Shown: one piece after another, positions 10,184 through 24,998 of the stretch | Position numbering within the stretch: the stretch's first letter is position 1 | How the letters are laid out: every line of letters starts with the position of its first letter | Assembly: GCA_046348365.1 (NCBI GenBank) | Contig: JAXMEL010000002.1 | Span: forward strand, 251,960-283,959 | Direction: 5' to 3' | Length of the DNA: 32,000 nucleotides | From: Burkholderiaceae bacterium | GTDB taxonomy: Bacteria > Pseudomonadota > Gammaproteobacteria > Burkholderiales > Burkholderiaceae_C | Notes under the pieces: model-generated | Seen by the model: the letters and a program-made list of their open reading frames with translations, nothing else | Database searches by the model: none | What the model was told of the DNA's origin: nothing | Translations under genes and position numbers: made by a program

Positions 10184-11110
10184 TCACGCGCCGGACGATG
10201 TGCAGTGGCGCAGGAAGTCTTCCGCGCCGCGACCGAGGTGCTTGTCGCGATGCAGCACGATCGCCAGCCGGCGCGTGGCGCGCGGCAGCCGCGTGGCCAG
10301 CTCGACCAGCACACCCTGCTCCAGTTCGCGGGCCACCACCTCGCGCGGCAGGCAGCCGAGCGCATGGCCCGTGCCGACCAGCCGCTTGATCGCCTCGGGG
10401 CTGCCGAGCTCGAACTCCACGCGCAGCGAGCCCACATGATCGAGCAGCCAGCGCTCGACCGCCTCGCGCGTGCCCGAGCCGCGCTCGCGCAGGGCCCAGG
10501 TGGCTTCGCCCAGCTGGCGCAGCGTGGCGGTGCCGCCGGCCAGCGCGTGCGCCGGCGCGGCCACGATCACCAGCTCGTCGCTGCGCCAGCCGCGCACGAT
10601 GAGCTGCGGATGCGTCTGCCGGCCCTCGATGAAGCCGATATCGACGTCGAACGCCGCCACCGCCGAGATGACCTCGCTGGTGTTGCCGATCATCAACTGC
10701 ACCGGGCTCGCCGGATGCGCCGCCTTCCAGTCGGCGAGCAGGTCGGGCAGCATGCACTCGCCGATCGTCAGGCTCGCCGCGAGGCGCAGCGGCGCATCGT
10801 GCTCGGCGGTGAACAGCTGCTGCAGCTCGGCGGCACGGTCCAGCAGCGACATTGCCTTGGGCAGCAGCGCGCGGCCGTTCTCGTTGAGCAGCAGCCGCCG
10901 GCCGACGCGATCGAACAGCTGCGCGCCGAGCGTGTCCTCCAGCTCCACCAGCGTGGCGCTGGCCGCCGACTGCGATCGCGACACCTGGTCGGCGGCCGCG
11001 CGCACGGTGCCGGCGCGCGCGGTGGCCGCGAACACCTCGAGCTGGCGCAGATTGACCCGCAGGCGCTGGCCGGCGAAGGGCGGGCGGGCTTGATCGGATT
11101 TTCCGGGCAT
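10184..11110 (-). CDS. LysR-family transcriptional regulator, divergent from sat-aprBA
   Basis: The start is at MPGKSDQ (cat at 11108-11110). The HTH region is LRQLEVFAATARAGTVRAAADQVSRSQSAASATLVELE, followed by a LysR substrate-binding domain. The upstream part of track ORF 10184-11836 is antisense to sat and was discarded. Confidence 0.85.
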   Translation of the reverse strand: MPGKSDQARPPFAGQRLRVNLRQLEVFAATARAGTVRAAADQVSRSQSAASATLVELEDTLGAQLFDRVGRRLLLNENGRALLPKAMSLLDRAAELQQLFTAEHDAPLRLAASLTIGECMLPDLLADWKAAHPASPVQLMIGNTSEVISAVAAFDVDIGFIEGRQTHPQLIVRGWRSDELVIVAAPAHALAGGTATLRQLGEATWALRERGSGTREAVERWLLDHVGSLRVEFELGSPEAIKRLVGTGHALGCLPREVVARELEQGVLVELATRLPRATRRLAIVLHRDKHLGRGAEDFLRHCTSSGA

Positions 11111-14935: not shown

Positions 14936-15504
14936 TGGCCCGCACCCGACTCGCCCTGCTCGCGCTCGCCGCTGCTGCGCTGCCCGCGCTGGCGCAGCAG
15001 CCGGCGTGGCTCGACGACGCGCGCAAGGTCGCCACCTCGGTGCCGCCCAAGCTGCTTGCCGTGCTGCAGGCCGAGATCGACAAGGGCGGGCCCGAGAACG
15101 CGATCGCGGTGTGCAAGGAGCAGGCGCCGCAGCTTGCGAAGGAGGCGTCCGACGAATCGGGCTGGGCGGTGCGCCGCGTCAGCCTGCGCAACCGCAACCC
15201 GAAGGCGGTGCCCGATGCGTGGGAGCGCGCGGCGCTGGAAGACTTCGACCGCCGCGCCGCTGCCGGCGAAAACCCGGCCACGCTGGAGAAGGCCGAGGAA
15301 GTGAAGGACGACGCCGGCAAGCCGGTGCGCCGCTACATCCGCGCGCTGCCGACGCAGCAGTTGTGCCTGCAGTGCCACGGCCCGGTCGAGCAGCTCAAGC
15401 CGGCGGTGGTCGAGCGCCTGCGCGCGCTCTATCCCGAGGATCGCGCCACCGGTTACCAGGCCGGGCAGATCCGCGGCGCGATGACGCTGCGCCGCGCGCC
15501 CTGA
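14935..15504 (+). CDS. Exported DUF3365 (Tll0287-like) monoheme c-type protein
   Basis: ATG 14935 overlaps the aprA TGA by 1 nt (TGATG). The product has a signal peptide (MARTRLALLALAAAALPALAQQ) and a single CLQCH motif. The body (AIAVCKEQAPQLAK...WAVRRVSLRNRNP...GYQAGQIRGAMTL) is typical of DUF3365. Confidence 0.7.
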   Translation: MARTRLALLALAAAALPALAQQPAWLDDARKVATSVPPKLLAVLQAEIDKGGPENAIAVCKEQAPQLAKEASDESGWAVRRVSLRNRNPKAVPDAWERAALEDFDRRAAAGENPATLEKAEEVKDDAGKPVRRYIRALPTQQLCLQCHGPVEQLKPAVVERLRALYPEDRATGYQAGQIRGAMTLRRAP

Positions 15505-15515
15505 AGGAGACCGCG

Positions 15516-16019
15516 ATGCGACGACTCTTCGCCTGCGGCGCGCTCGCCGCGGCTTGCGCGCAGGCGCAGGCCGGCACGCTGATGTCAGAGGAATGGACGG
15601 CGCAGGCTTGCGAGCAGTGGAACCACACGGCCACACTGACCGACGAGCTGGCCGCCACGTGGATCAAGAACGACGGCGGCAAGGGCTTCAAGGTGGTGCA
15701 GCTGTACCGCACCGAGTGCGGCGAGGCCGGCCGCACCGAGCTGCGCATCGCTGGCAAGGACGGCAAGGCGCTGTGCAACTACGGCGGCAAGCTGCAGACG
15801 GCGCAGCTCGATTCCGGCGTGGACTACGTGATGCACGCCAGCACCGAGCGCTGGGGCGAGATGGGGCGCGGCGAATACGGCCCGATGCGCGCGATGATGT
15901 TCGGCCGCCTCAACTTCGTCGGCCCGAAGATGGAAGCCATGGGCGTGATGGGCCCGTTCGAGAGCTTCCTGCTGCTGGTGGGCAAGGTCGCCGGCGACAC
16001 GGCCGCGTGCCCGCAGTAG
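15516..16019 (+). CDS. Exported SCP2 (sterol-carrier-protein-2)-like protein, six Cys
   Basis: AAGGAGA lies 6 nt upstream of the ATG. The product has a signal peptide (MRRLFACGALAAACAQAQAG). Its C-terminal segment AMMFGRLNFVGPKMEAMGVMGPFESFLLLVG resembles the SCP2 consensus (..M.GK..I.G.M..AMKL..L). Confidence 0.55.
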   Translation: MRRLFACGALAAACAQAQAGTLMSEEWTAQACEQWNHTATLTDELAATWIKNDGGKGFKVVQLYRTECGEAGRTELRIAGKDGKALCNYGGKLQTAQLDSGVDYVMHASTERWGEMGRGEYGPMRAMMFGRLNFVGPKMEAMGVMGPFESFLLLVGKVAGDTAACPQ

Positions 16020-16087: not shown

Positions 16088-16978
16088 ATGAGCGACACGC
16101 CGCCCTTCGTTGCCAGCCCGGTCACGCCGCAAACGCTCGAGGGCAGCGCGCCGCTGCAGTTCCAATGCCGCAAGGGCATCGCGTGCTGGAACGCCTGCTG
16201 CAGCAACATCGACATCGCGCTGACGCCGGTCGACATCGTGCGGCTGAAAGCCCGGCTCGAGCTGGCGTCGTCGCAGTTCCTGGCGCAGTACACGTTGCCG
16301 TACGAGATGGAGAAGGACGGCATCGCCGGCGTCAAGCTGAAGCCGGTGGACGGCGGCACCGCCTGCCGCTTCATGACCGACGCCGGCTGCAGCGTCTACG
16401 ACGACCGCCCCACCGCCTGCCGCTACTACCCCGTGGCGCTGCTGTCGATGCGCAAGCAGGACGAGGCGGTGGACCGCCAGTACTACGCCATCGTGCGCGA
16501 GGACCACTGCCTCGGCCACCGCGAGCCGCGCACGCAGACCATCGACGCCTACCGCGCCGAGCAGGGCGTGGTCGAGTACGACGAACTCGCGCGCGGCTGG
16601 CGCCAGCTGGTGCTGAAGAAGAAGAGCACGGGCCCGACGGTGGGCAAGCCGAGCAAGCGCAGCCTCGAGCTGTTCTTCATGACCTGCTACGACGTCGACC
16701 GCTTCCGCTCGTTCGTGGCGAGCGACGCCTTCTGCGGCGTGTTCGACCTGCCCGACGACGAGCTGCGCCAGGCGCTGATCGACGACCATGCGCTGCTGCT
16801 GTTCGGCTACCGCTTCCTGCGCCAGGTGCTGTTCGGCGAGATGACGATCCCGATGAAGGCCGCCAGCGTCGAGCAGCGCCGCACCCGCATGGTCGAGCAG
16901 CGCGCGCGCATCGAGCGCGAGGCCGCCGAGCGGCTGGCGCGCGACGACGACGACGGCGGCGCCTACGTCGACGTCTGA
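16088..16978 (+). CDS. YkgJ/UPF0153-family Cys-cluster (putative Fe-S/Zn) protein with long C-terminal extension
   Basis: ATG is at 16088. The family motifs are C-x6-C-x3-CC (CRKGIACWNACC) and ACRFMTDAGCSVYDDRPTACRYYP. The product is 296 aa and has no signal peptide. Confidence 0.7.
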   Translation: MSDTPPFVASPVTPQTLEGSAPLQFQCRKGIACWNACCSNIDIALTPVDIVRLKARLELASSQFLAQYTLPYEMEKDGIAGVKLKPVDGGTACRFMTDAGCSVYDDRPTACRYYPVALLSMRKQDEAVDRQYYAIVREDHCLGHREPRTQTIDAYRAEQGVVEYDELARGWRQLVLKKKSTGPTVGKPSKRSLELFFMTCYDVDRFRSFVASDAFCGVFDLPDDELRQALIDDHALLLFGYRFLRQVLFGEMTIPMKAASVEQRRTRMVEQRARIEREAAERLARDDDDGGAYVDV

Positions 16979-16996: not shown

Positions 16997-17006
16997 CGCG
17001 CTTGTG

Positions 17007-17027
17007 TTGCAACCCTGGCCGTTGCAG
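17007..17027. promoter_or_regulatory. Dyad TGCAAC-N7-GTTGCA, candidate enhancer (UAS) for a bacterial enhancer-binding protein
   Basis: The sequence is ttgcaaccctggccgttgcag. It is centred about 100 bp upstream of the sigma54-type promoter candidate at 17107-17122. Confidence 0.3.
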
Positions 17028-17106
17028 AAAGCCGCGAGCACGGCGCAGCGCACACGCTGATTGCAGTTTTCATCGCGCCAGGCGTGCGCCGGCGCCGGCA
17101 AGCGCT

Positions 17107-17122
17107 TGGCATGCAAGCTGCT
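17107..17122 (+). promoter_or_regulatory. Sigma54 (-24/-12) promoter candidate TGGCAT-N5-CTGC
   Basis: The sequence is tTGGCATgcaagCTGCTt. GG-N10-GC spacing is exact, and 14 of 16 positions match TGGCACG-N4-TTGCW. It lies about 65 nt upstream of the first TusA-like ORF. A sigma54-dependent activator is encoded at 29832-31253. Confidence 0.45.
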
Positions 17123-17187
17123 TGTCGACTGCTCGCGAGGAAGCCGAGGTGACGACGAGCAGCTCAGGTTGGTGGTCGCGCTGGCGC

Positions 17188-17481
17188 ATGCGCCGCGCGC
17201 ACGAACCCGCGCCGCCGCGACCCGAGGTCGACCTGCCGGGCCTGGGCCCGACGCCGATCGCGCAGTCGGTCGACTGCATCGGCGCCATGTGCCCGCGCCC
17301 GCAACTGTTGACGATGAAGGTGCTCGGCCATATGCAGATCGGAGAAGTGATCGAAGTGCGCTGCGACAGCGCGCCCGCGGTCGAGGGGTTTCCCGCCCTC
17401 GCGCTGTCGCTGACCAGCACGCACCTGGCCACGATCCGCGAGCCCGCCGGCTGGCGCGTCTATCTGCGCAAGGGCCAGTAG
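17188..17481 (+). CDS. TusA/SirA-family sulfur-carrier protein (CPxP motif)
   Basis: The product contains VDCIGAMCPRPQLLT, matching the TusA D-x-x-G-x-x-CPxP signature. An alternative in-frame GTG at 17149 lies 6 nt after AGGAAG and may be the real start. Confidence 0.7.
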   Translation: MRRAHEPAPPRPEVDLPGLGPTPIAQSVDCIGAMCPRPQLLTMKVLGHMQIGEVIEVRCDSAPAVEGFPALALSLTSTHLATIREPAGWRVYLRKGQ

Positions 17482-17492
17482 ACGTGCGTTCG

Positions 17493-18935
17493 ATGGCCCC
17501 GGCCCGACCCCTCGCGACCGGCGCGCCGCGCCTGGCGCTTGCCCGCTCGCTCGGGCTGCTGGCGGCGATGGCGGCGCTGTCGCTGTGGGCGCTGGTGATC
17601 GACCGGCGCTTCGCCTACATCCTCGTGTACGCCTGGTTCGGCGTCGGCTACGGCCTGTTGCTGCAGTACGGTCGCTTCTGCATGGCCTCGGCGGTGCGCG
17701 ACCTGTTCGCGGTGCGCGTGCCACGCATGGCGGTGGCGATGATGATCGCGGTCGCGCTGTACGCGCTGGTGGCCGCCGGCGTCGGGCTGGCCGGACTGAG
17801 CACGTTCCACCCCAACCCGCTGGGCTGGCACATCGTCGTGGGCGCGACGATCTTCGGCTTCGGCATGGTGTTCACCGGCGGCTGCGCGTCGGGTTCGCTG
17901 TACAAGGCGGGCGAGGGCAACCTCGGCTCGGCGCTGGTGATCGTCGCGATCTCGTTCTCGCAGGCGCTGGTGGTCACCGCCGGCGGCTGGGCCGACGCGC
18001 TCGCACCGGCGTCGTGGACCGCGTCGGCGCGAGCCAAGGAGATGCCGGCCGAGCTCACCGTCACGCAAGGCTGGTTCGACCTCTTCACCGCCGGCTATGT
18101 GTGGGACCTGAAGGCGACGACCGCAGCGCAGGCGCTCGGCGTGGCCGAATCGCCGCTGCTGGCCGCCGCTGTCAACTTGCTGCTGGTGGCCCTGCTGCCG
18201 GTGGGACTGGTGTTGCTCGCGCTGTACGCGGTGTATTTCCGCCCCGGCTACATGCGCCGCGAGCGCATCGCCGCGCCGACGCTGCGCCAGCACGCACGCG
18301 GCCTGTGGGCGATGGCCACCTCGTCGCGCAACACCTCGATCGCCGGCGTCGGGCTCGGCGTGCTCGCCGGCGCGCACATGTGGGCCACCGGCGTGATGCG
18401 CGAGCATTTCGGCGTGGGCAATTTCGGCGAGCTGCTGGCGGCGATGAACCGGCGCGACGGCCTGTCGATCCAGGATACGGTGTTCGACCCCGGCTACTGG
18501 TACATCACGACCCAGGAAGCGCAGTGGGGCGGCTGGCTGCTCGAGCGGCTCGGGCTGACGATGCGCGACAACCTGTACTTCGGCCTCGACAACGGCCTGC
18601 CCAACCCGCTGCTCAATGCACCCGGCTTCATGTCGGTCGGCATCATCGTCGGCGCGGCGGCGATGGCGATGGCGCGGCGCGAGTTCAAGTGGAAGACGCC
18701 GTCGCTCGAGACGGCGTTGTTCGCGCTCGCCGGCGGCGCGCTGATGGGCCTGGGCGCACGCGTGGCGATGGGCTGCAACATCGGCGCGTTCTTCGCCACC
18801 GTGACCAACGGCGACCCCAGCGGCTGGCTGTTCCTGGCCGGCATGGCGCTCGGCGCCTGGCTCGGTGTGAAGGTCTTCACCTGGTGGGTCGATTGGCAGT
18901 CGGCGCGGCGCGGCGACGAACTGTCGCTGTCCTGA
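17493..18935 (+). CDS. YeeE/YedE-family (TsuA-like) sulfur-compound transporter, two fused sulf_transp halves
   Basis: The 480-aa polytopic product starts at ATG 17493, or possibly GTG 17484. It carries conserved Cys motifs (GRFCMASAVRDLF, FTGGCASGSLYKAGEG, AMGCNIGAFF). Confidence 0.8.
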   Translation: MAPARPLATGAPRLALARSLGLLAAMAALSLWALVIDRRFAYILVYAWFGVGYGLLLQYGRFCMASAVRDLFAVRVPRMAVAMMIAVALYALVAAGVGLAGLSTFHPNPLGWHIVVGATIFGFGMVFTGGCASGSLYKAGEGNLGSALVIVAISFSQALVVTAGGWADALAPASWTASARAKEMPAELTVTQGWFDLFTAGYVWDLKATTAAQALGVAESPLLAAAVNLLLVALLPVGLVLLALYAVYFRPGYMRRERIAAPTLRQHARGLWAMATSSRNTSIAGVGLGVLAGAHMWATGVMREHFGVGNFGELLAAMNRRDGLSIQDTVFDPGYWYITTQEAQWGGWLLERLGLTMRDNLYFGLDNGLPNPLLNAPGFMSVGIIVGAAAMAMARREFKWKTPSLETALFALAGGALMGLGARVAMGCNIGAFFATVTNGDPSGWLFLAGMALGAWLGVKVFTWWVDWQSARRGDELSLS

Positions 18936-18992
18936 GGCGCGGCCGAGCGAGCGCCATCCGCCAGGGCCACACAACAGCGAAGGAGCAGCGAA

Positions 18993-19244
18993 GTGACGGT
19001 GTCCTTCACCCAGACCGCCGACGGCCAGTGGAAGCTCGACGTGTGCGGCTACTCGTGCCCGCATCCGCAGCTCTACACCAAGAAGGCGATGCAGAAGCTC
19101 GCCAGCGGCGACACGCTGACCGTGGTGTTCGACAACCCGTCGTCCGGCGAGTCGATTCTGGCGATGTGCGAGGCCGACGGCAACGACATCGTCGAGCGCA
19201 CCGACAGCGGTGGCCAGTACGTCTGGACGATCCGCAAGGCCTGA
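18993..19244 (+). CDS. Second TusA/YedF-like sulfur-carrier protein
   Basis: The start is GTG 18993. The 83-aa product contains LDVCGYSCPHPQLYTKKAM (CPxP signature). Confidence 0.75.
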   Translation: MTVSFTQTADGQWKLDVCGYSCPHPQLYTKKAMQKLASGDTLTVVFDNPSSGESILAMCEADGNDIVERTDSGGQYVWTIRKA

Positions 19245-19249
19245 AAGCG

Positions 19250-19558
19250 ATGCTGTTCGGCCTGATCGTCACCGACCAGCGGCACGCCGGCCACGCGGCC
19301 GGACTGTTGGCCGCGGCCGCGGCGCGCGGCTGGGACGCGCGTTGCTTCCTGACCGACTCGGGCGTGCTGGCGCTGAGCGATGAAGCCTTCATGGCGCAGG
19401 CGAGCGCGCGCCCCAACACCGTGGCGGCGTGCAAGCACAGCCTGGATCACCTGGCGCCGCAGTTCGATGCGGGCTCGGTCAAGGGCACGGTGGTCATCGG
19501 CGGCCAGTTCCAGGGCGCGAAGCTGACGCAGTCGGCCGACGCGGTGCTGGTGCTCTGA
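19250..19558 (+). CDS. DsrE/DsrF-like small protein
   Basis: The ATG lies 5 nt after the preceding stop. The 102-aa product has an N-terminus (MLFGLIVTD...) and C-terminus (...SADAVLVL) in the DsrE/F/H pattern. An internal Cys is present (VAACKHS). GC3 is high. Confidence 0.55.
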   Translation: MLFGLIVTDQRHAGHAAGLLAAAAARGWDARCFLTDSGVLALSDEAFMAQASARPNTVAACKHSLDHLAPQFDAGSVKGTVVIGGQFQGAKLTQSADAVLVL

Positions 19559-19578
19559 ACAGGAAGGCGAGACGCGCG

Positions 19579-19836
19579 ATGGCCAAGCGGATCCTGGTGG
19601 CGGCGATCGACAAGCCGGTGGAGGCGCTGCGCGTCGCCGCCGGCCTGACGCTCATCGACGCCTCGCTGAGCGTCGCGCTGTGGGGCCCGATGCCCACCGG
19701 CGAGGCGGCACAGGCGCAACTCGAGGCGCTGCAGTTCGCCGAGGTGCCGGTCGACGAGCTGCCCGCAGCAACAGGCGAACGCTGGCTCGAGCTGGCGCGG
19801 CGCATCGTCGCGAGCGACGCGGTGTACTGCCTATGA
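19579..19836 (+). CDS. Small DsrH/TusB-like protein (tentative)
   Basis: The 85-aa product begins MAKRILVAAIDKPVEALRVAAGL and ends ...ASDAVYCL, resembling the DsrF/H family ends. GC3 is high. Confidence 0.4.
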   Translation: MAKRILVAAIDKPVEALRVAAGLTLIDASLSVALWGPMPTGEAAQAQLEALQFAEVPVDELPAATGERWLELARRIVASDAVYCL

Positions 19837-20042
19837 CGAAGGCCGCGAAAGTGTTGATCGTGCACACGGCGTCGGGCGCGCCCGACGCCGGCCCGGGGCA
19901 CCCGCTGGCGCAGGCGCTGGCGCAGCTCGGCGCGTCGGTACGCGAGCTGCCGCTGGCCGCGCCGTACGACGCGCTGCTCGACGCGATCGCCGACGGCTGG
20001 ATGCCGGTGGCCTGCAAGTCGCCCGGCGCGGCACCGCCATGA
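19833..20042 (+). CDS. Small hypothetical protein (69 aa), possibly third member of a DsrEFH-like trio
   Basis: The start shares an ATGA overlap with the previous stop. The product begins MTKAAKVLIVHTASG and contains ...WMPVACKSP. GC3 is very high, supporting coding. I recognise no family. Confidence 0.35.
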   Translation: MTKAAKVLIVHTASGAPDAGPGHPLAQALAQLGASVRELPLAAPYDALLDAIADGWMPVACKSPGAAPP

Positions 20043-20095
20043 GTCGAACGAGGCGCGGCGACGCGCTCATCCCACCCCTGCAGGAGAACGCACCC

Positions 20096-21574
20096 ATGCA
20101 ACAACGAGTCTGGACCCTGCTGATGCTGGCCGGCAGCGCCGCGCTGGCGCTGACGCTGCACGGCTGCGGCGGCGGCGCGGCCGAGAGCAACTCGGTCGCC
20201 AGCCGCATCAAGGTGAACTCACCGGCGCAGCTCGCCCAGACGTCGGCCGACAGCTACGACGACAACGTCGACGGCATCGTCACCGGCGCCACGCTGAAGC
20301 GCTGGATGTCCGACTGGCCGCGCCAGCGGCCGGCCGGCGTGAGCGGCAAGCTGGTCATCTTCCAGGCCACCGCCGGCCCGGCAGGCGCCGAGTACATCAA
20401 GCCCGACGGCGTCAATGTCTTCACCTATCTCTCGCCCAGCAGCGAGTGGATCCAGACGCGCCGCAACGGCGTGATCGAGACGCCGAGCATGGTGCCCGAC
20501 GGCGCGACGATGGACGCCCTGCTCAAGAAGTACAACATCGATCCCGAGCGCGACATGATCGTCGCGGCGATGGGCACCGGCAGCACCGCCAACGCGATGG
20601 GGCAGGGCCGGATCTGGTACGCGCTGCGCTACTGGGGCATGGACCGCTCGCACCTCGCCGTGCTCAACGGCGGCAACCAATGGCTCAACGGCAACGGCAT
20701 GGCCACCGCCGATTTCCAGGCCACCGCGTCGGTCGCACCCAACAGCGGCACGGCGAGCGTCAAGAGCCTGCTGGTGGACAACACGCAGCTCCAGGCCACG
20801 ATGCAGGACCTGCTGGCCGCGCTGCCCGGCGGCGACTACAACGTCAAGAACGACGGCGTGCTGATCTGGGACGCGCGCAGCCTCGGCCAGTACAGCGCCG
20901 GCATGATGGTCGAGCGCGGCGAGGACGTCGACCCCAACACCGCCGGCGCGCAGCCCTGCACCACGGCCTACTGCACGCCCACCGACACGTCCAACTACAA
21001 GTGGACGTTCCAGAACAACGGGTCGCGCCAGGGCCATCCGTGGGGCACGCTGCAGCTGCAGTACACCAACCTGCTCGATTCGACCAAGGGCTTCGGCTAC
21101 CGGCCGAAGTCGGTGCTGGCCGCGTACCTCAGCGGCGCACCCGACGCCAACGGCATCGGCTTCGTCGATTCCAGCTATGCGCTCGTCGGCGCCGGCAACG
21201 CCTACCAGGAAGGCGACACGATCTACGTCTATTGCGAAACCACCTTCCGCGCGATGATCACGGGCATCACCAGCGCCGTGATCCTCGGCAAGCCGACGCG
21301 CTTCTACGACGGCGCGATGGTCGAGTGGAACTCGCTGTCCTATATCGCCGACAACAAAGGCAATGCGATCCTGCCGGCCAACTCACACTGGCGCACCGAC
21401 CTGCGCTCGTACTTCCGGCCCGCGCCGAGCTCCGCCGATGTCGCACCGCGCACGATCGTCGGTCCCTACGCCAACTCGGCGCAGGCGATCGTCAACGCCG
21501 ACAAGACCTACAAGACCGGCGAGAGCGACAGCTCCGACGGCGGCGGCCTGCCCTCCAACCCCTGCGGCGGCTGA
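20096..21574 (+). CDS. Tandem-rhodanese lipoprotein (ExtH-like)
   Basis: AGGAGA lies 8 nt upstream of the ATG. The product has a signal plus lipobox (LALTLHGC). The first rhodanese-like domain lacks a catalytic Cys (RIWYALRYWGMDRSHLAVLNGG). The second has an active-site loop (YVYCETTFRA) and FYDGAMVEWNS. The product is 492 aa. Confidence 0.7.
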   Translation: MQQRVWTLLMLAGSAALALTLHGCGGGAAESNSVASRIKVNSPAQLAQTSADSYDDNVDGIVTGATLKRWMSDWPRQRPAGVSGKLVIFQATAGPAGAEYIKPDGVNVFTYLSPSSEWIQTRRNGVIETPSMVPDGATMDALLKKYNIDPERDMIVAAMGTGSTANAMGQGRIWYALRYWGMDRSHLAVLNGGNQWLNGNGMATADFQATASVAPNSGTASVKSLLVDNTQLQATMQDLLAALPGGDYNVKNDGVLIWDARSLGQYSAGMMVERGEDVDPNTAGAQPCTTAYCTPTDTSNYKWTFQNNGSRQGHPWGTLQLQYTNLLDSTKGFGYRPKSVLAAYLSGAPDANGIGFVDSSYALVGAGNAYQEGDTIYVYCETTFRAMITGITSAVILGKPTRFYDGAMVEWNSLSYIADNKGNAILPANSHWRTDLRSYFRPAPSSADVAPRTIVGPYANSAQAIVNADKTYKTGESDSSDGGGLPSNPCGG

Positions 21575-21646
21575 GCGGCAGCATGTGGCAACTGCACGGC
21601 CTGCACGGCCCGCGCGGCACGCCGCAGCGCGCGCGTCGGAGCCTGC

Positions 21647-22891
21647 ATGATGGCTGTGCCGCTGCCGCAGCGCCGGCTGGCCGTGCGAGCCCTGCTGCTG
21701 GCGCGACTGGCGCTGCTGGCGACGCTCATCCTGCCGGCGGGCTGCCAGCGCACCGATCCGGCGGCGCTGGAGCGCTTCGTCGACGCGCATTGGGCCGATC
21801 CGCTGCCGCCGCAGGGTGCGCCGCCGCCGTCGTTCAGCGCGCTCGAGGCATCGCTGTCGCCGCAGGCCTGCGGCCAGTGCCACCCGGCGCAGTGGCGCGA
21901 CTGGCAGACCAGCCTGCACAGCCGCAGCGTCGGGCCCGGGCTGACGTGGCAGCTTCACCTGCTCGACCAGGGCCGTGCCAACCGCTGCCTGCGCTGCCAC
22001 GCACCGCTGGCCGAGCAGAAGGCGCTGCTCGCGCGCGAGCATGGCTGGCCGGCGCAGCCGGCTGGGCCGCCGCCGGCCTACGTCGAAGCGACGCTGGCGC
22101 ACCAGGGCTTGGTGTGCGCGGCGTGCCACGTGCGCGGCCATCGCCGCTACGGGCCGCCGGCGCGCACGCGCGCGGACGCCAGCTCGCACGACGGCTTCGT
22201 GGCGACCGATGGGTTCAGCGACAGCCGCTTCTGTGCCGCGTGCCACCAGTTCCAGAACGACGGCCCGCGCGTGGCCGGCAAGCTGCACGAAGACACCTAT
22301 GCGCAGTGGCAGGCGAGCGGCATGGCCGGCGGGCAAAGTTGTCAGTCGTGCCACATGCCCGACCGTCGCCACCTCTGGCGCGGCATCCACGATGCCGAGA
22401 TGACGCGTCGCGCGATCGACGTGCAGCTCACTGTCGAGGCCGTGGCACCGGGGCGCTTCGAGGCGCGAGCGACGGTGCGCAACATCGGCGCGGGACACCA
22501 CTTCCCCACCTACATGGTGCCCAAGGTCGAACTGCAGTTCGTGCGCGTGGAGCGCGACGGACGAACCACCGAGCTCGGCCGGCAGGTGATCGGCTGGAGC
22601 GTGGATACCGCGATCACGCGCGAGATCGAAGACACACGCATTCCGGCCGGGCAATCGCGCCGCTTCGTACAGCGCTTCGATGCGCCGGCGGCCGCCGGCT
22701 GGAGCGTGGAGTTGCGCATCTCGGTGCATCCGGGCGAGCACTACGAGCGCACGTTCCGCGACAGTCTGGCTCGCGCGCAGCGGCTGCCTGCTGCGGCGCG
22801 GCCGTTGCTCGAGGAAGCGCTGCGCCGCGTGCAGGCGACGCGCTACGAACTGATGCGGCTGCGCCAGCGACCGAACGGCAACGGGTCTTGA
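21647..22891 (+). CDS. Pentaheme c-type cytochrome, probable lipoprotein (ExtK-like)
   Basis: GGAG lies 5 nt upstream of the ATG. The N-terminus carries a signal with LILPAGC. Five CxxCH motifs are present (CGQCH, CLRCH, CAACH twice, CQSCH). The product is 414 aa. Confidence 0.8.
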   Translation: MMAVPLPQRRLAVRALLLARLALLATLILPAGCQRTDPAALERFVDAHWADPLPPQGAPPPSFSALEASLSPQACGQCHPAQWRDWQTSLHSRSVGPGLTWQLHLLDQGRANRCLRCHAPLAEQKALLAREHGWPAQPAGPPPAYVEATLAHQGLVCAACHVRGHRRYGPPARTRADASSHDGFVATDGFSDSRFCAACHQFQNDGPRVAGKLHEDTYAQWQASGMAGGQSCQSCHMPDRRHLWRGIHDAEMTRRAIDVQLTVEAVAPGRFEARATVRNIGAGHHFPTYMVPKVELQFVRVERDGRTTELGRQVIGWSVDTAITREIEDTRIPAGQSRRFVQRFDAPAAAGWSVELRISVHPGEHYERTFRDSLARAQRLPAAARPLLEEALRRVQATRYELMRLRQRPNGNGS

Positions 22892-22922
22892 GGAGCCGGC
22901 GGCGCGCGCCGGCGCTGCCGCG

Positions 22923-23279
22923 ATGATGCAACGCACCGTCGCCGGCGGCCGCTCGGCCATCGTGTGGGTCGTGCTCGCCGCGTCCGTGGCGCAGAGCGCA
23001 TTCGTCGCCACGGCTGCGGCCCAAGGCCTGCCGACGCCGGAAGCGGCCGCCTCCGCCGCCGTCATGCCACCCGCCGCGGCGCCGGCGTCGCGGTTGAAGT
23101 ACCGATCCAAAGGCCCGGTGTGCGCCTGCTCGTCCGATCTCGACGAGGCCGCGATCGAGCGCGCCCTGGCCGCGCGCTTCGGCGCGAGCGCCGCCACGCC
23201 GTCGCCTGGCAGCGCGCCAGCGCCGCCGCGCCGAGCGGCATCCCGTCCACCACTGCAACCACAGGAGCAGCGTCGATGA
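22923..23279 (+). CDS. Small exported Ala/Pro-rich protein with CAC motif (ExtJ-like position)
   Basis: The product has a signal peptide (IVWVVLAASVAQSAFVATAAAQG). GC3 in this frame is clearly higher than in the alternative open frame. Its stop shares an ATGA overlap with the next gene. Confidence 0.5.
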   Translation: MMQRTVAGGRSAIVWVVLAASVAQSAFVATAAAQGLPTPEAAASAAVMPPAAAPASRLKYRSKGPVCACSSDLDEAAIERALAARFGASAATPSPGSAPAPPRRAASRPPLQPQEQRR

Positions 23280-23800
23280 CACGCCACAGCGAGAGCACTT
23301 CGGGGGAGACCGCACGAGCCCGGCAACGGCCGCGTCGGCGAGCGCGAGCGCGCAGCCTGGGCACCGTCTGCTTCAGCGTGCTGTTGGCGCTGCTGCTGTG
23401 GTCGGCCGGGTTCGATCGCCGCGACGCCGACGCGCGCGCCGACGCCGCCGGTTGGGGTGGCGAGGCCGCGCAGGCCCTGGCCGAAGACCCGCTGCACTGG
23501 CTGCCGATCACGCCGGCCAACGCCTGCGGGCTGGGCGCATCGAGCTGCTTCAAGTGCCACAACGGCAAGCGTGCCGCGGCGCCCGCGGCCGACCCGGCCA
23601 AGGCGCCGTGGCACGTGCACCACGCCAAGGTCAACAACTCATGCGCGGGCTGCCACAAGGGCAACCCGCGCGTGATGAAGGAAGACATCGCGCACACCAA
23701 GATGCTGGCCAAGCCACGCGACGATTCGGGCGGCGCTTGCAGCGGCTGCCACGCCTCCGACCTCGCCAAGGTCCAGACCGCCTACACCGGAGGGAAGTGA
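23276..23800 (+). CDS. Triheme c-type cytochrome with N-terminal membrane anchor/signal (ExtL-like)
   Basis: AGGAG lies 8 nt upstream of the ATG. An Arg-rich N-tail is followed by one hydrophobic segment (LGTVCFSVLLALLLWSAGF). Three CxxCH motifs are present (CFKCH, CAGCH, CSGCH). The product is 174 aa. Confidence 0.75.
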   Translation: MTRHSESTSGETARARQRPRRRARARSLGTVCFSVLLALLLWSAGFDRRDADARADAAGWGGEAAQALAEDPLHWLPITPANACGLGASSCFKCHNGKRAAAPAADPAKAPWHVHHAKVNNSCAGCHKGNPRVMKEDIAHTKMLAKPRDDSGGACSGCHASDLAKVQTAYTGGK

Positions 23801-23801
23801 G

Positions 23802-24998
23802 ATGAGCCACCACACCGCAACGAGGCGTCCGGCCGTTCCCGGCCGGGCCGCACGCAAGGCCCTCTTGCTCGCCGCGGCCGCGCTGCCGCTCGGCGCTGCG
23901 GCCGGGCCGACGATCGAGTTCGGCTCGGGCAGCAACCTGAACATCACCTATTCGCTGCAGGGCTGGCTGCAGGGCCGCGGCTTCACGTCGTCGGACAACG
24001 GCGCGCGCTCATGGGACATGTTCCTGCGCCGCAACCGGCTCACCTTCAGCGGCCAGTACAACGACCAGATCGGCTTCTACGCCCAGCTCGAGGCCAGCGG
24101 CGACAGCCGCGGCGGCGCCGACGACCGCAGCGTGTTCTTCCGCGACGCCTACATCAGCTTCGACTACAGCGACGAGCTGCGCTTCATCGCGGGGCGGTTC
24201 AAGAATGCTTTCTCGCGCGAAAACCTCGAGGCCTGCCTCGAGCCGCTGACGATGGACCGCGCCGAGGTGCTCTCCTACACGCCGTTCGCCGGCACGCGCG
24301 ACACCGGCGTCGCCGTTTGGGGCAACCTGTTCAATGCGCGTGTGCAGTACCGCCTGATGGTGGCCGACGGCCGCGAAGGCAGCTACGTGCCCAAGGACAG
24401 CCCGCGCGTGACGGGGCGCGTGCACGTGAGCCTGTGGGACCCGGAGTTCAACTACGGCTACCTCGGCACCTACCTCGGCACGCAGAAGGTGCTGACGATC
24501 GGCGCCGCCTACGACACCCAGAAGGACGTGGCGTGGGCCAACTACCTCTCGCGCGCCGACGTCAAGAGCTACAAGGCCACGACGCTCGACGCCTTCATGG
24601 AGCTGCCGCATGCCACCGGCGTCTACACGCTGTCGGCGGCAACCTTCAAGTACGACACCGGCGGCGCCTTCGGCCAGTCGCCCGACCCCGAGCTGAACGC
24701 CAACTCCGATCTGAAGGGCTGGTATCTCAAGGCCGGCTACATGCTGCCGTCGAAGGTCGGCCCGGGCCGGCTGCAGCTCTTCGGGCGCCACGAGCGGCTC
24801 GACTACGCCGTGAAGACCGGCATCGCGCAGTACTACGACAACACCTGGAACAGCCTCGGCGCCCACTACTACTTCGACGGCCAGCGCATCAAGGTCAGCG
24901 CCGAGCTGGCCAAGGTCCGCTTCGACACGCCGCACCCGCTCAACCAGGCGCTGCGCGACTACCGGCAGGCTACACTGGGTGTGCAGTTGATCTTCTGA
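23802..24998 (+). CDS. Outer-membrane beta-barrel porin (OprO/P-like or ExtI-like)
   Basis: The ATG lies 1 nt after the previous stop. A signal peptide ends ...LPLGAAAG. The sequence shows alternating amphipathic beta-strand patterning with many Y/F/G/N/D residues. The C-terminus is ...TLGVQLIF, with a terminal Phe. The product is 398 aa. Confidence 0.75.
   Translation: MSHHTATRRPAVPGRAARKALLLAAAALPLGAAAGPTIEFGSGSNLNITYSLQGWLQGRGFTSSDNGARSWDMFLRRNRLTFSGQYNDQIGFYAQLEASGDSRGGADDRSVFFRDAYISFDYSDELRFIAGRFKNAFSRENLEACLEPLTMDRAEVLSYTPFAGTRDTGVAVWGNLFNARVQYRLMVADGREGSYVPKDSPRVTGRVHVSLWDPEFNYGYLGTYLGTQKVLTIGAAYDTQKDVAWANYLSRADVKSYKATTLDAFMELPHATGVYTLSAATFKYDTGGAFGQSPDPELNANSDLKGWYLKAGYMLPSKVGPGRLQLFGRHERLDYAVKTGIAQYYDNTWNSLGAHYYFDGQRIKVSAELAKVRFDTPHPLNQALRDYRQATLGVQLIF

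Follow-up and report, generated by a model that had tools for sequence, protein, structure and literature searches.

The closest described relatives of the genes analysed here are found in two systems. The first is the extHIJKL(MNOPQS) cluster of Geobacter sulfurreducens (GSU2940-2936), in which extK and extL form one gene that is read through a UGA codon, ExtL being the C-terminal part of the selenoprotein ExtKL (PMC6148476, PMC13510729). This protein, also known as MccSep, is a soluble periplasmic homotetramer with five hemes and a C-terminal immunoglobulin-like (Ig-like) domain; it is a polysulfide reductase essential for the respiration of elemental sulfur (S0), the ligands of its heme 2 are His122 and Cys239, and the selenocysteine Sec325 as well as Arg83 and Lys372 are required for activity (PMC13510729). 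The route by which polysulfide crosses the outer membrane is, according to the authors of that study, unknown (PMC13510729). The second system is the cytoplasmic sulfur relay encoded by the YTD (yeeE-tusA-dsrEFH type II) cluster. YeeE-family proteins import sulfur for oxidation (PMC11582611), and sulfur transfer from TusA to Cys67 of DsrE of the DsrEFH type II complex and on to DsrC has been shown in vitro (PMC13293266). The words porin, rhodanese and cytochrome do not occur in the paper on the YTD cluster (PMC13293266).

Here we describe a locus that contains relatives of both systems. It lies in a stretch of 32,000 nucleotides (nt) on contig JAXMEL010000002.1 of a Burkholderiaceae bacterium, referred to below as the window. 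Five closely packed genes on the forward strand of the window (20096-24998) encode a rhodanese lipoprotein, a pentaheme cytochrome, a small exported protein, a triheme cytochrome and a porin, as an initial annotation made from the sequence had correctly listed. That annotation had likened them to extHIJKL. In our reading the five genes are one half, that of the outer membrane and the periplasm, of a locus of about 13 genes. The locus spans positions ~17107 to 31253 and thus exceeds the five-gene run, and on balance we think it probable that this conserved, sigma-54-controlled locus of sulfur-oxidizing Beta- and Gammaproteobacteria serves to take up sulfane sulfur and to pass it through the cell envelope.

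That these genes form one unit is indicated by their synteny. A scan of one genome per species gave 184 proteins related to the porin. Of these, the 80 best are all at least 57% identical to it, and their loci were compared by tblastn with the proteins of the window. In each of these 80 loci the genes follow one another in the order rhodanese, pentaheme cytochrome (Cyt5), triheme cytochrome (Cyt3), porin, kinase, regulator. Wherever enough upstream sequence was available (60/60 loci), the rhodanese, the two cytochromes and the porin adjoin a tusA-yeeE-tusA block together with the two larger of three small open reading frames (ORFs); the third and smallest was detected by tblastn in 37 of those 60. 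Likewise, genes for a PAS kinase and a sigma-54 regulator follow the porin in 72/72 loci whose downstream sequence was long enough. The tusA-yeeE block is inverted in 11 loci, which therefore contain two transcription units. The hosts of the best 80 loci are named mostly as sulfur- or iron-oxidizing lithotroph lineages; carriers include Thiobacillus, Hydrogenophilus, Sideroxydans, Gallionella, Candidatus Thiodiazotropha, Thiohalobacter, Thiohalomonas, Thiogranum and Rubrivivax, and at least one isolate, Thiohalobacter thiocyanaticus Hrh1, is among the 184 genomes. No description of the combined 13-gene locus was found in the literature searched, the coverage of which was incomplete.

For comparison, 80 metagenome loci encoding a Geobacter-type ExtI were fetched. 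Their order is ExtH-ExtI-(ExtJ)-ExtKL, as opposed to ExtH-Cyt5-small protein-Cyt3-ExtI in the window, and no yeeE/tusA block was found near them apart from a fragment in one locus. The gene order of the window had been regarded as rearranged; it does differ from that of the Geobacter type, but it is no peculiarity of the window, being invariant in all 80 species-level loci. Window-type loci also lack the bc-like genes extMNOPQS; yeeE-tusA-dsrEFH type II and a two-component system of the sigma-54 type adjoin them in every case, and their hosts are sulfur oxidizers.

The protein most clearly related to its Geobacter counterpart is the porin (23802-24998, forward strand; 398 amino acids), which belongs to the Pfam family Porin_O_P and matches the NCBIfam model porin_ExtI (NF040900) with 316.8 bits (E 1.8e-94; residues 21-398 on positions 13-403 of the 403 of the profile), well past the cut-off of 150 bits. 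An identical porin in a Burkholderiaceae metagenome-assembled genome (MAG) has already been named ExtI by NCBI. With the ExtI sequence of G. sulfurreducens, taken from a supplementary alignment, it shares 38% identity over 398 alignment columns (E 2e-73), and with the Geobacter-type loci 36-42% in tblastn. Its length had been listed among the differences from Geobacter, which is mistaken, since ExtI there has 406 amino acids and 398 is thus normal for the family. The model generated with AlphaFold2 (predicted local distance difference test score, pLDDT, 78) consists of 16 long strands and a long L3 constriction loop, which carries a motif common to the window porin and Geobacter ExtI, RENLEAC(L/E)xPLTxDR. 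A Foldseek search with this model returned OprP (2o4v, E 5e-14) as the best match and also OprO, chitoporin, Omp32 and OmpF; no MtrB-type sheath was among the 50 matches listed. Judged by its model, the protein is thus a diffusion channel like OprP and not a cytochrome sheath like MtrB. The phosphate-selective OprP and OprO share the Pfam family and the modelled 16-strand fold with it; Geobacter ExtI, however, is only about 12-13% identical to them and keeps two of their phosphate-binding residues (PMC5877670), and the ExtI family has an L3 motif of its own with an invariant cysteine. This residue, Cys145 (24234-24236), is the only cysteine of the porin, sits in the predicted L3 loop (~24204-24296), is invariant in 41 homologues and is kept in Geobacter ExtI. 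A constriction loop is an unusual place for a cysteine in a porin, and Cys145 could take part in thiol or persulfide chemistry. By analogy with the putative role of ExtI, the channel may pass selenite and tellurite or polysulfide.

These features of the porin bear on the idea that the module is a porin-cytochrome conduit which carries electrons across the outer membrane for metal reduction, Fe(II) oxidation or uptake from an electrode. The initial annotation had spoken of a porin-cytochrome module, which is misleading, and had itself named an ordinary 16-strand anion porin that cannot accommodate a partner as contrary to its proposal. It is as a 16-strand, OprP-like channel with an L3 loop that the porin models, a conduit barrel having about 20-26 strands. 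It is true that extHIJKL originally figured in a list of putative conduit clusters and that metal reduction is slightly affected by its deletion (PMC6148476), and some carriers of the locus, such as Sideroxydans and Gallionella, are iron oxidizers. Yet no large extracellular cytochrome is encoded, the pentaheme homologue of Geobacter is a soluble periplasmic enzyme (PMC13510729), and the locus is always tied to genes of a cytoplasmic sulfur relay. We therefore regard an electron conduit as extremely unlikely.

The first gene of the run (20096-21574, forward strand) encodes a tandem-rhodanese lipoprotein of 492 amino acids, whose C-terminal domain matches Pfam Rhodanese. It has a lipobox (LHGC), a catalytic Cys380 in a CETTFRA loop and a Gly-rich C-terminal linker that ends in NPCGG and contains Cys490. 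The lipobox cysteine is present in 64 of 66 homologues, the C-terminal cysteine in 65 of 66 and the catalytic cysteine in 66 of 66, so that the catalytic residue, which had been described as intact in the window, is so throughout. The NCBIfam model ExtH (NF040901) matches residues 4-436 with 86.2 bits (E 2.3e-24), below its cut-off of 200 bits; identity with Geobacter-type ExtH is 21-35% by tblastn in the 80 metagenome loci, and no match was found in the PDB. NCBI annotates the protein as hypothetical in the Burkholderiaceae MAG. Its distance from ExtH notwithstanding, it shares with it the lipobox, the catalytic cysteine and the Gly-rich cysteine arm. Among the sulfur oxidizers the rhodanese ends in NPCG(G) in 61 of 62 loci; in the one exception (locus L007) the gene reads through as an ORF of 1165 amino acids, which is probably a frameshift or an assembly error. 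Geobacter-type ExtH (encoded, for example, at 138-1547 of locus L085, the first of the set L085-L163) has a Gly/Ser-rich linker and terminates in cysteine in 63 of 63 loci, as GGC or SGC in 62 and as GNC in the remaining one. The end of the NCBIfam profile had suggested a canonical ExtH that lacks this arm, and a motif pattern had suggested a Geobacter ExtH that lacks the catalytic cysteine; the former is ruled out by the 63 loci and the latter by alignment with the window rhodanese, in which Geobacter-type ExtH keeps the residue as CRAGN.A. In the literature examined we found no mention of the C-terminal cysteine of ExtH, nor of the QGC end of the ExtJ-like ORFs considered below. The whole rhodanese family is small, with 269 clusters among 1.84 billion representative proteins, and many of its distant members also end in a Gly-rich sequence and a cysteine. 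By its architecture the window rhodanese is a divergent but complete ExtH.

An arm of this kind recalls SoxY, which carries its sulfur substrate on the cysteine of a flexible Gly-rich C-terminal arm (GGCGG). The two can be likened to each other by analogy only, as there is no relationship in sequence or fold and the arm of the window protein is fused to a rhodanese. In Wolinella, Sud is a periplasmic protein of the rhodanese type, from which polysulfide sulfur passes to the redox enzyme of the Sud-PsrABC system; the window module differs in having no molybdoenzyme.

The second gene (21647-22891, forward strand) encodes Cyt5, a c-type cytochrome lipoprotein of 414 amino acids with five heme motifs (CGQCH, CLRCH, CAACH, CAACH and CQSCH). 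Its lipobox LPAGC (Cys33) had been noted before, and beyond the lipobox and the heme motifs it contains no cysteine. A profile built from 45 homologues matches MccSep with an E value of 5.6e-11 and 5ZE8 with 6e-6. The NCBIfam model ExtKL (NF040886) reaches 42.6 bits, below its cut-off of 250 bits, and covers the heme region only (residues 68-267), and identity with the pentaheme protein of the Geobacter-type loci is 20-25% in tblastn. In the AlphaFold2 model (pLDDT 81) a helical heme domain is followed by a beta-sandwich at 257-361, and the only strong Foldseek match is again 5ZE8 (E 4.3e-10, template modelling score 0.50-0.53). The latter structure, named merely "cytochrome c552" in the PDB, is that of a low-potential pentaheme c552 from the purple sulfur bacterium Thermochromatium tepidum, with five hemes and an Ig-like domain and 17% identity to Cyt5. 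The C-terminal domain of Cyt5 alone found no match among the PDB sequences. In the Burkholderiaceae MAG this protein, too, is annotated as hypothetical.

Residue equivalences between Cyt5 and MccSep (PDB 9WT8/9WT9) were read from a MAFFT alignment, for which complete ExtKL sequences containing Sec had been translated from the metagenome loci. Each of the five CxxCH motifs has its counterpart in MccSep, the proximal ligand His122 of heme 2 is kept, and the beta-sandwich carries an N-x-(A/S)GH-x-x-P loop as in MccSep. The active site, in contrast, has disappeared. Cys239 and Lys372 correspond to gaps in 15 of 15 aligned Cyt5 sequences of sulfur oxidizers, and Arg83 is replaced in 12 of the 15, by Thr in the window and by Leu in most homologues. 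At the position of Sec325 there is Met290 in the window, and Met, Val and Leu in 50, 10 and 7 of 67 homologues, respectively. Cyt5 instead has an invariant Lys212 and His284. Its lipobox cysteine is found in 48 of 67 homologues, which make up the main betaproteobacterial clade, and is missing from two further clades, the gammaproteobacterial one and the one in which the gene blocks diverge; MccSep, by comparison, is soluble. The sequence comparison thus places Cyt5 in the MccSep/c552 superfamily as a protein that is no MccSep, all four catalytic residues having been lost, and its role is probably electron transfer or a different chemistry.

Could the module nevertheless be a periplasmic polysulfide/S0 reductase system as in Geobacter? 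It might then serve anaerobic S0 respiration or disproportionation, or supply a little sulfide as a priming flux, by which S8 would be dissolved to polysulfide fit for import. The homology of the module to ExtH, ExtI and ExtKL is in line with this, as are the proposal that sulfide from MccSep solubilizes S0 (PMC13510729) and the fact that sulfur disproportionators are the organisms in which the YTD cluster was initially noticed (PMC13490349). But the deletions and replacements in the active site of Cyt5 argue against a reductase, no ExtMNOPQ-like quinol-oxidizing genes accompany the module in the loci, and the hosts are oxidizers of sulfur or iron. A reductive role is in our opinion unlikely.

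The remaining two genes have no such clear counterparts in Geobacter. The small exported protein (22923-23279, forward strand; 118 amino acids) has a signal peptide and a VCAC motif, and no match in Pfam or NCBIfam. Its core, RL(K/R)(F/Y)(R/K)..GP.C.C..GLSE, is present in all 23 loci inspected, although tblastn alone detected the protein in just 38 of 80; in the 80 Geobacter-type loci tblastn gave no match at E <= 1e-3. The ExtJ-like ORFs of about 105 amino acids that follow extI there end in QGC in 47 of 67 loci (for example L085:2876-3190), whereas the window protein has an internal CxC. Some Desulfuromonadales loci contain an extra small exported ORF between extI and extJ (L087:9274-9640 and L100:9263-9610, also L108 and L127), whose motif I(T/K)(Y/H)RSG faintly recalls the LKYRSKG core of the window protein; this likeness may be due to chance.

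Cyt3 (23276-23800, forward strand; 174 amino acids), whose ATG overlaps the stop codon of the small-protein gene, has three heme motifs (CFKCH, CAGCH and CSGCH). The Arg-rich stretch and single hydrophobic helix pointed out earlier are both present and are located at the N-terminus, where they resemble an uncleaved signal anchor. Weak NCBIfam matches to ExtS (E 5e-5) and ExtM were found. All 40 homologues contain an extra cysteine, Cys84 in the window, seven residues before the first heme motif (ANACG.GASSCFKCH), and Cyt3 comes in addition to what the Geobacter cluster encodes. SoxXA of the Sox thiosulfate oxidation system is likewise a c-type cytochrome with a cysteine near heme. The loss of the catalytic residues from Cyt5 together with the invariant extra cysteine of Cyt3 hints at one of two things: any catalytic heme-thiol centre may now reside in Cyt3, or the two cytochromes may do no more than shuttle electrons.

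How, then, does the likeness to the Ext cluster stand as a whole? The porin, the rhodanese and the pentaheme cytochrome are homologous to their Ext counterparts, the latter two below the cut-offs of the models (86 against 200 and 43 against 250 bits, respectively), and the small protein shows no similarity to ExtJ. The claim that the parts list is exactly that of extHIJKL, with a separate triheme lipoprotein ExtL, fails with the recognition that ExtL is a part of ExtKL. At the family level the sequence comparisons indicate that the analogy is largely right. Common to both loci are an ExtI porin with a single cysteine in the L3 motif, a tandem-rhodanese lipoprotein with catalytic cysteine and cysteine arm, and a pentaheme protein with an Ig-like domain, all in one operon and associated with chalcogen chemistry. 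That chalcogen chemistry rather than generic extracellular electron transfer is the business of this family had already been suggested by the initial annotation and agrees with the polysulfide reductase activity of ExtKL (PMC13510729) and with the selenite and tellurite phenotype of extI (PMC5877670). What is new is a conserved 13-gene variant on the oxidative side and a cysteine arm that is common to the whole ExtH family. The ExtH/ExtI/ExtKL family looks like an ancient sulfur-handling module that is at work in sulfur reduction as well as in sulfur oxidation.

The block with tusA and yeeE lies upstream, on the same strand. It begins with a TusA-like sulfur carrier (17152-17481; Pfam TusA E 5e-12), which is conserved in position and whose start is uncertain, probably the GTG at 17150, followed by a YeeE/YedE-family inner-membrane sulfur transporter (17493-18935; Pfam Sulf_transp E 3e-48) and a second TusA-like carrier (18993-19244; Pfam TusA E 6.5e-20). 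Three small ORFs come next, none with a match in Pfam or NCBIfam. The first encodes a cytoplasmic protein of 102 amino acids with invariant C32 and C61 (19250-19558), probably DsrE type II, as its position, size and cysteines fit the YTD cluster; those of 85 (19579-19836) and 69 amino acids (19833-20042; found by tblastn in 41 of 80 loci) are, by conserved synteny, probably DsrF and DsrH type II. The described YTD cluster likewise encodes YeeE and TusA and has three small ORFs, of about 100, 85 and 60-70 amino acids, with a conserved cysteine near position 61-67 of the first. It differs in that there are two tusA genes in the window and that the Ext-like module and the sigma-54 system invariably accompany the block described here.

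Thiosulfate, too, was considered as the specific substrate. Thiosulfate sulfurtransferase activity is the classical activity of rhodaneses, and the porin belongs to the anion-selective OprO/P family. Thiosulfate might thus enter through an anion porin and be split by the rhodanese into sulfite and an arm persulfide, the product then being imported by YeeE and TusA acting like TsuA and TsuB. In E. coli, YeeE/TsuA and YeeD/TsuB do import thiosulfate (PMC11073785), and the transporter and the second TusA weakly match the NCBIfam models TsuA and TsuB. These matches, however, lie far below the cut-offs, MccSep is inactive on thiosulfate (PMC13510729), and eight hemes, a CxC protein and the homology to a polysulfide system would be left without explanation. 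A thiosulfate-specific pathway seems improbable to us.

Still less credit can be given to a role in the uptake and reduction of selenite or tellurite, or in selenium assimilation, as the NCBIfam names imply. ExtH and ExtI do carry the label "selenite/tellurite reduction operon", and the best NCBIfam matches of YeeE and TusA are YedE (YedE/FdhT) and YedF. Loss of extI lowers selenite and tellurite reduction (PMC5877670), in agreement with the initial annotation, and MccSep reduces selenite, if less well than polysulfide (PMC13510729). But the YedE and YedF matches are below cut-off and the Sec-dependent selenite chemistry of MccSep has been lost. Moreover, the best 80 hosts are mostly of named sulfur- or iron-oxidizing lithotroph lineages, and the locus is constantly linked to DsrEFH type II, which transfers sulfur to DsrC (PMC13293266). 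We consider a selenium or tellurium function very unlikely.

Control of the locus appears to be its own. A sigma-54 type -24/-12 promoter (TGGCAT-GCAAG-CTGC; 17107-17121, forward strand) was found by motif scan about 30 nt upstream of the first tusA gene. An equivalent motif with a score of at least 10 of 11 lies within 250 nt upstream of this gene in 62 of 65 loci, scores that high being rare upstream of control genes, and wherever the two blocks diverge a second sigma-54 motif is found upstream of the rhodanese. Downstream, on the forward strand, are the genes for a PAS sensor histidine kinase (28348-29832, start uncertain; Pfam PAS, HisKA, HATPase_c) and a sigma-54-dependent response regulator of the NtrC type (29832-31253; Pfam Response_reg, Sigma54_activat, HTH_8; NCBIfam ntrC-like). 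A repeated GTTGCA element (TGTGTTGCAACCCTGGCCGTTGCAG) in the intergenic region before the promoter (16999-17030) is a candidate and could be the binding site of the regulator.

From established homologies, architectures, conserved Cys residues, synteny and promoter we infer what the locus would do, namely which substrate it takes (polysulfide/S0 as opposed to thiosulfate or selenite), in what order the sulfur is handed on and which way electrons flow. In the uptake and relay of sulfane sulfur that we favour, the ExtI-type 16-strand porin would admit soluble sulfur species, thiosulfate possibly but most likely polysulfide from S0; the Geobacter homologues act on polysulfide/S0 (PMC13510729). 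The ExtH-type rhodanese would capture sulfane sulfur as a persulfide on its catalytic cysteine and move it on the flexible, Gly-rich C-terminal arm that ends in a cysteine, while the small CxC protein, Cyt5 and the inner-membrane-anchored Cyt3 would perform or support a redox step. YeeE would then import the sulfur, which would pass via TusA and DsrEFH type II to DsrC and to oxidation by rDsr/sHdr. The adjacent PAS kinase and sigma-54 regulator would switch the locus on.

A more detailed version of this scheme is possible, but we put it forward tentatively and hold it to be doubtful as a whole. It is that of a thiol relay, in which sulfur would travel from the L3 cysteine of the porin to the catalytic cysteine of ExtH, to the arm cysteine, to the CxC protein or Cyt3 and finally to YeeE. 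Such a relay would be the missing outer-envelope front end of Dsr/sHdr oxidation, delivering extracellular or periplasmic zero-valent sulfur to TusA and DsrEFH type II, and the MccSep-derived cytochrome would have exchanged polysulfide reduction for a new role in electron transfer or in oxidative carrier loading.

Several points weigh against the uptake and relay of sulfane sulfur as we propose it. Cyt5 lacks every catalytic residue of MccSep, the best NCBIfam matches of YeeE and TusA are the selenium-linked models, all of them below cut-off, and instead of polysulfide the locus could take up thiosulfate or a selenium species. The three small ORFs are probably DsrEFH type II, as synteny, size and conserved cysteines suggest, but a profile of the 102-amino-acid protein found no DsrE in the PDB; the missing match to DsrE type I is to be expected at identities below 30% (PMC13293266). 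In the other 80 loci dsr genes lie within 10 kb in none and apr/sat genes in three, so that the link to Dsr/sHdr is indirect.

If the proposal is right, it would bear on a step of sulfur oxidation about which little has been established. The import of sulfur into the cytoplasm has been called "poorly understood" (PMC11582611), and so are the mobilization and import of insoluble or periplasmic zero-valent sulfur in Dsr/sHdr sulfur oxidizers. Here, one conserved unit combines a candidate channel in the outer membrane, a periplasmic carrier and redox partners with an inner-membrane importer, a cytoplasmic relay and a dedicated regulator.

As to the surroundings of the locus, the window has a G+C content of ~70%. 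The five genes lie in frames rich in G+C at third codon positions (0.88-0.91, computed for the three long genes), with intergenic gaps of 72, 31, -4 and 1 nt. The sulfur-oxidation context noted at the outset is indeed there, as the window contains dsrL/O/P, a DsrC-like gene, sat and aprBA besides TusA, YeeE and TusA. This dsr/apr/sat island was considered as conserved context and is ruled out by the counts given above; it is lineage-specific, whereas the link to the YTD block is universal, the conserved neighbours being that block and the two-component system. At the far end of the window, on the reverse strand, a single-domain rhodanese (31250-31639) and an HdrB-like CCG protein, present with its C-terminal part (31752-32000), are probably the start of an sHdr-type cluster, in which case Dsr and Hdr-like oxidation genes are both near the locus in this genome. 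A LysR-type regulator (~10184-11080, reverse strand) is divergent from sat and flanks this gene rather than the Ext-like genes; in Desulfuromonadales, LysR genes have been reported to be divergent from extHIJKL-like clusters (PMC6148476).

Two identical IS110-family elements of 1637 bp each, arranged head to tail (24999-28272, forward strand; Pfam DEDD_Tnp_IS110 and Transposase_20, NCBIfam IS110 274 bits), were recognized by these matches and by repeat analysis. They begin directly after the stop codon of the porin gene and split it from the kinase/regulator pair. None of the 80 genome loci gave a tblastn match to the transposase. The tandem, which could be either real or an assembly artefact, is an interruption and stands outside the system. 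An Rfam search of the window gave no match. After aprA, where AprM or an Hdr/Qmo-type partner is often encoded, there is a gene for an exported protein with a weak match to SCP2, a lipid-carrier fold (~15500-16019, forward strand), and just upstream of the sigma-54 promoter there is one for a YkgJ-like Cys-rich protein with a CxxCxxCC motif (16089-16978, forward strand).

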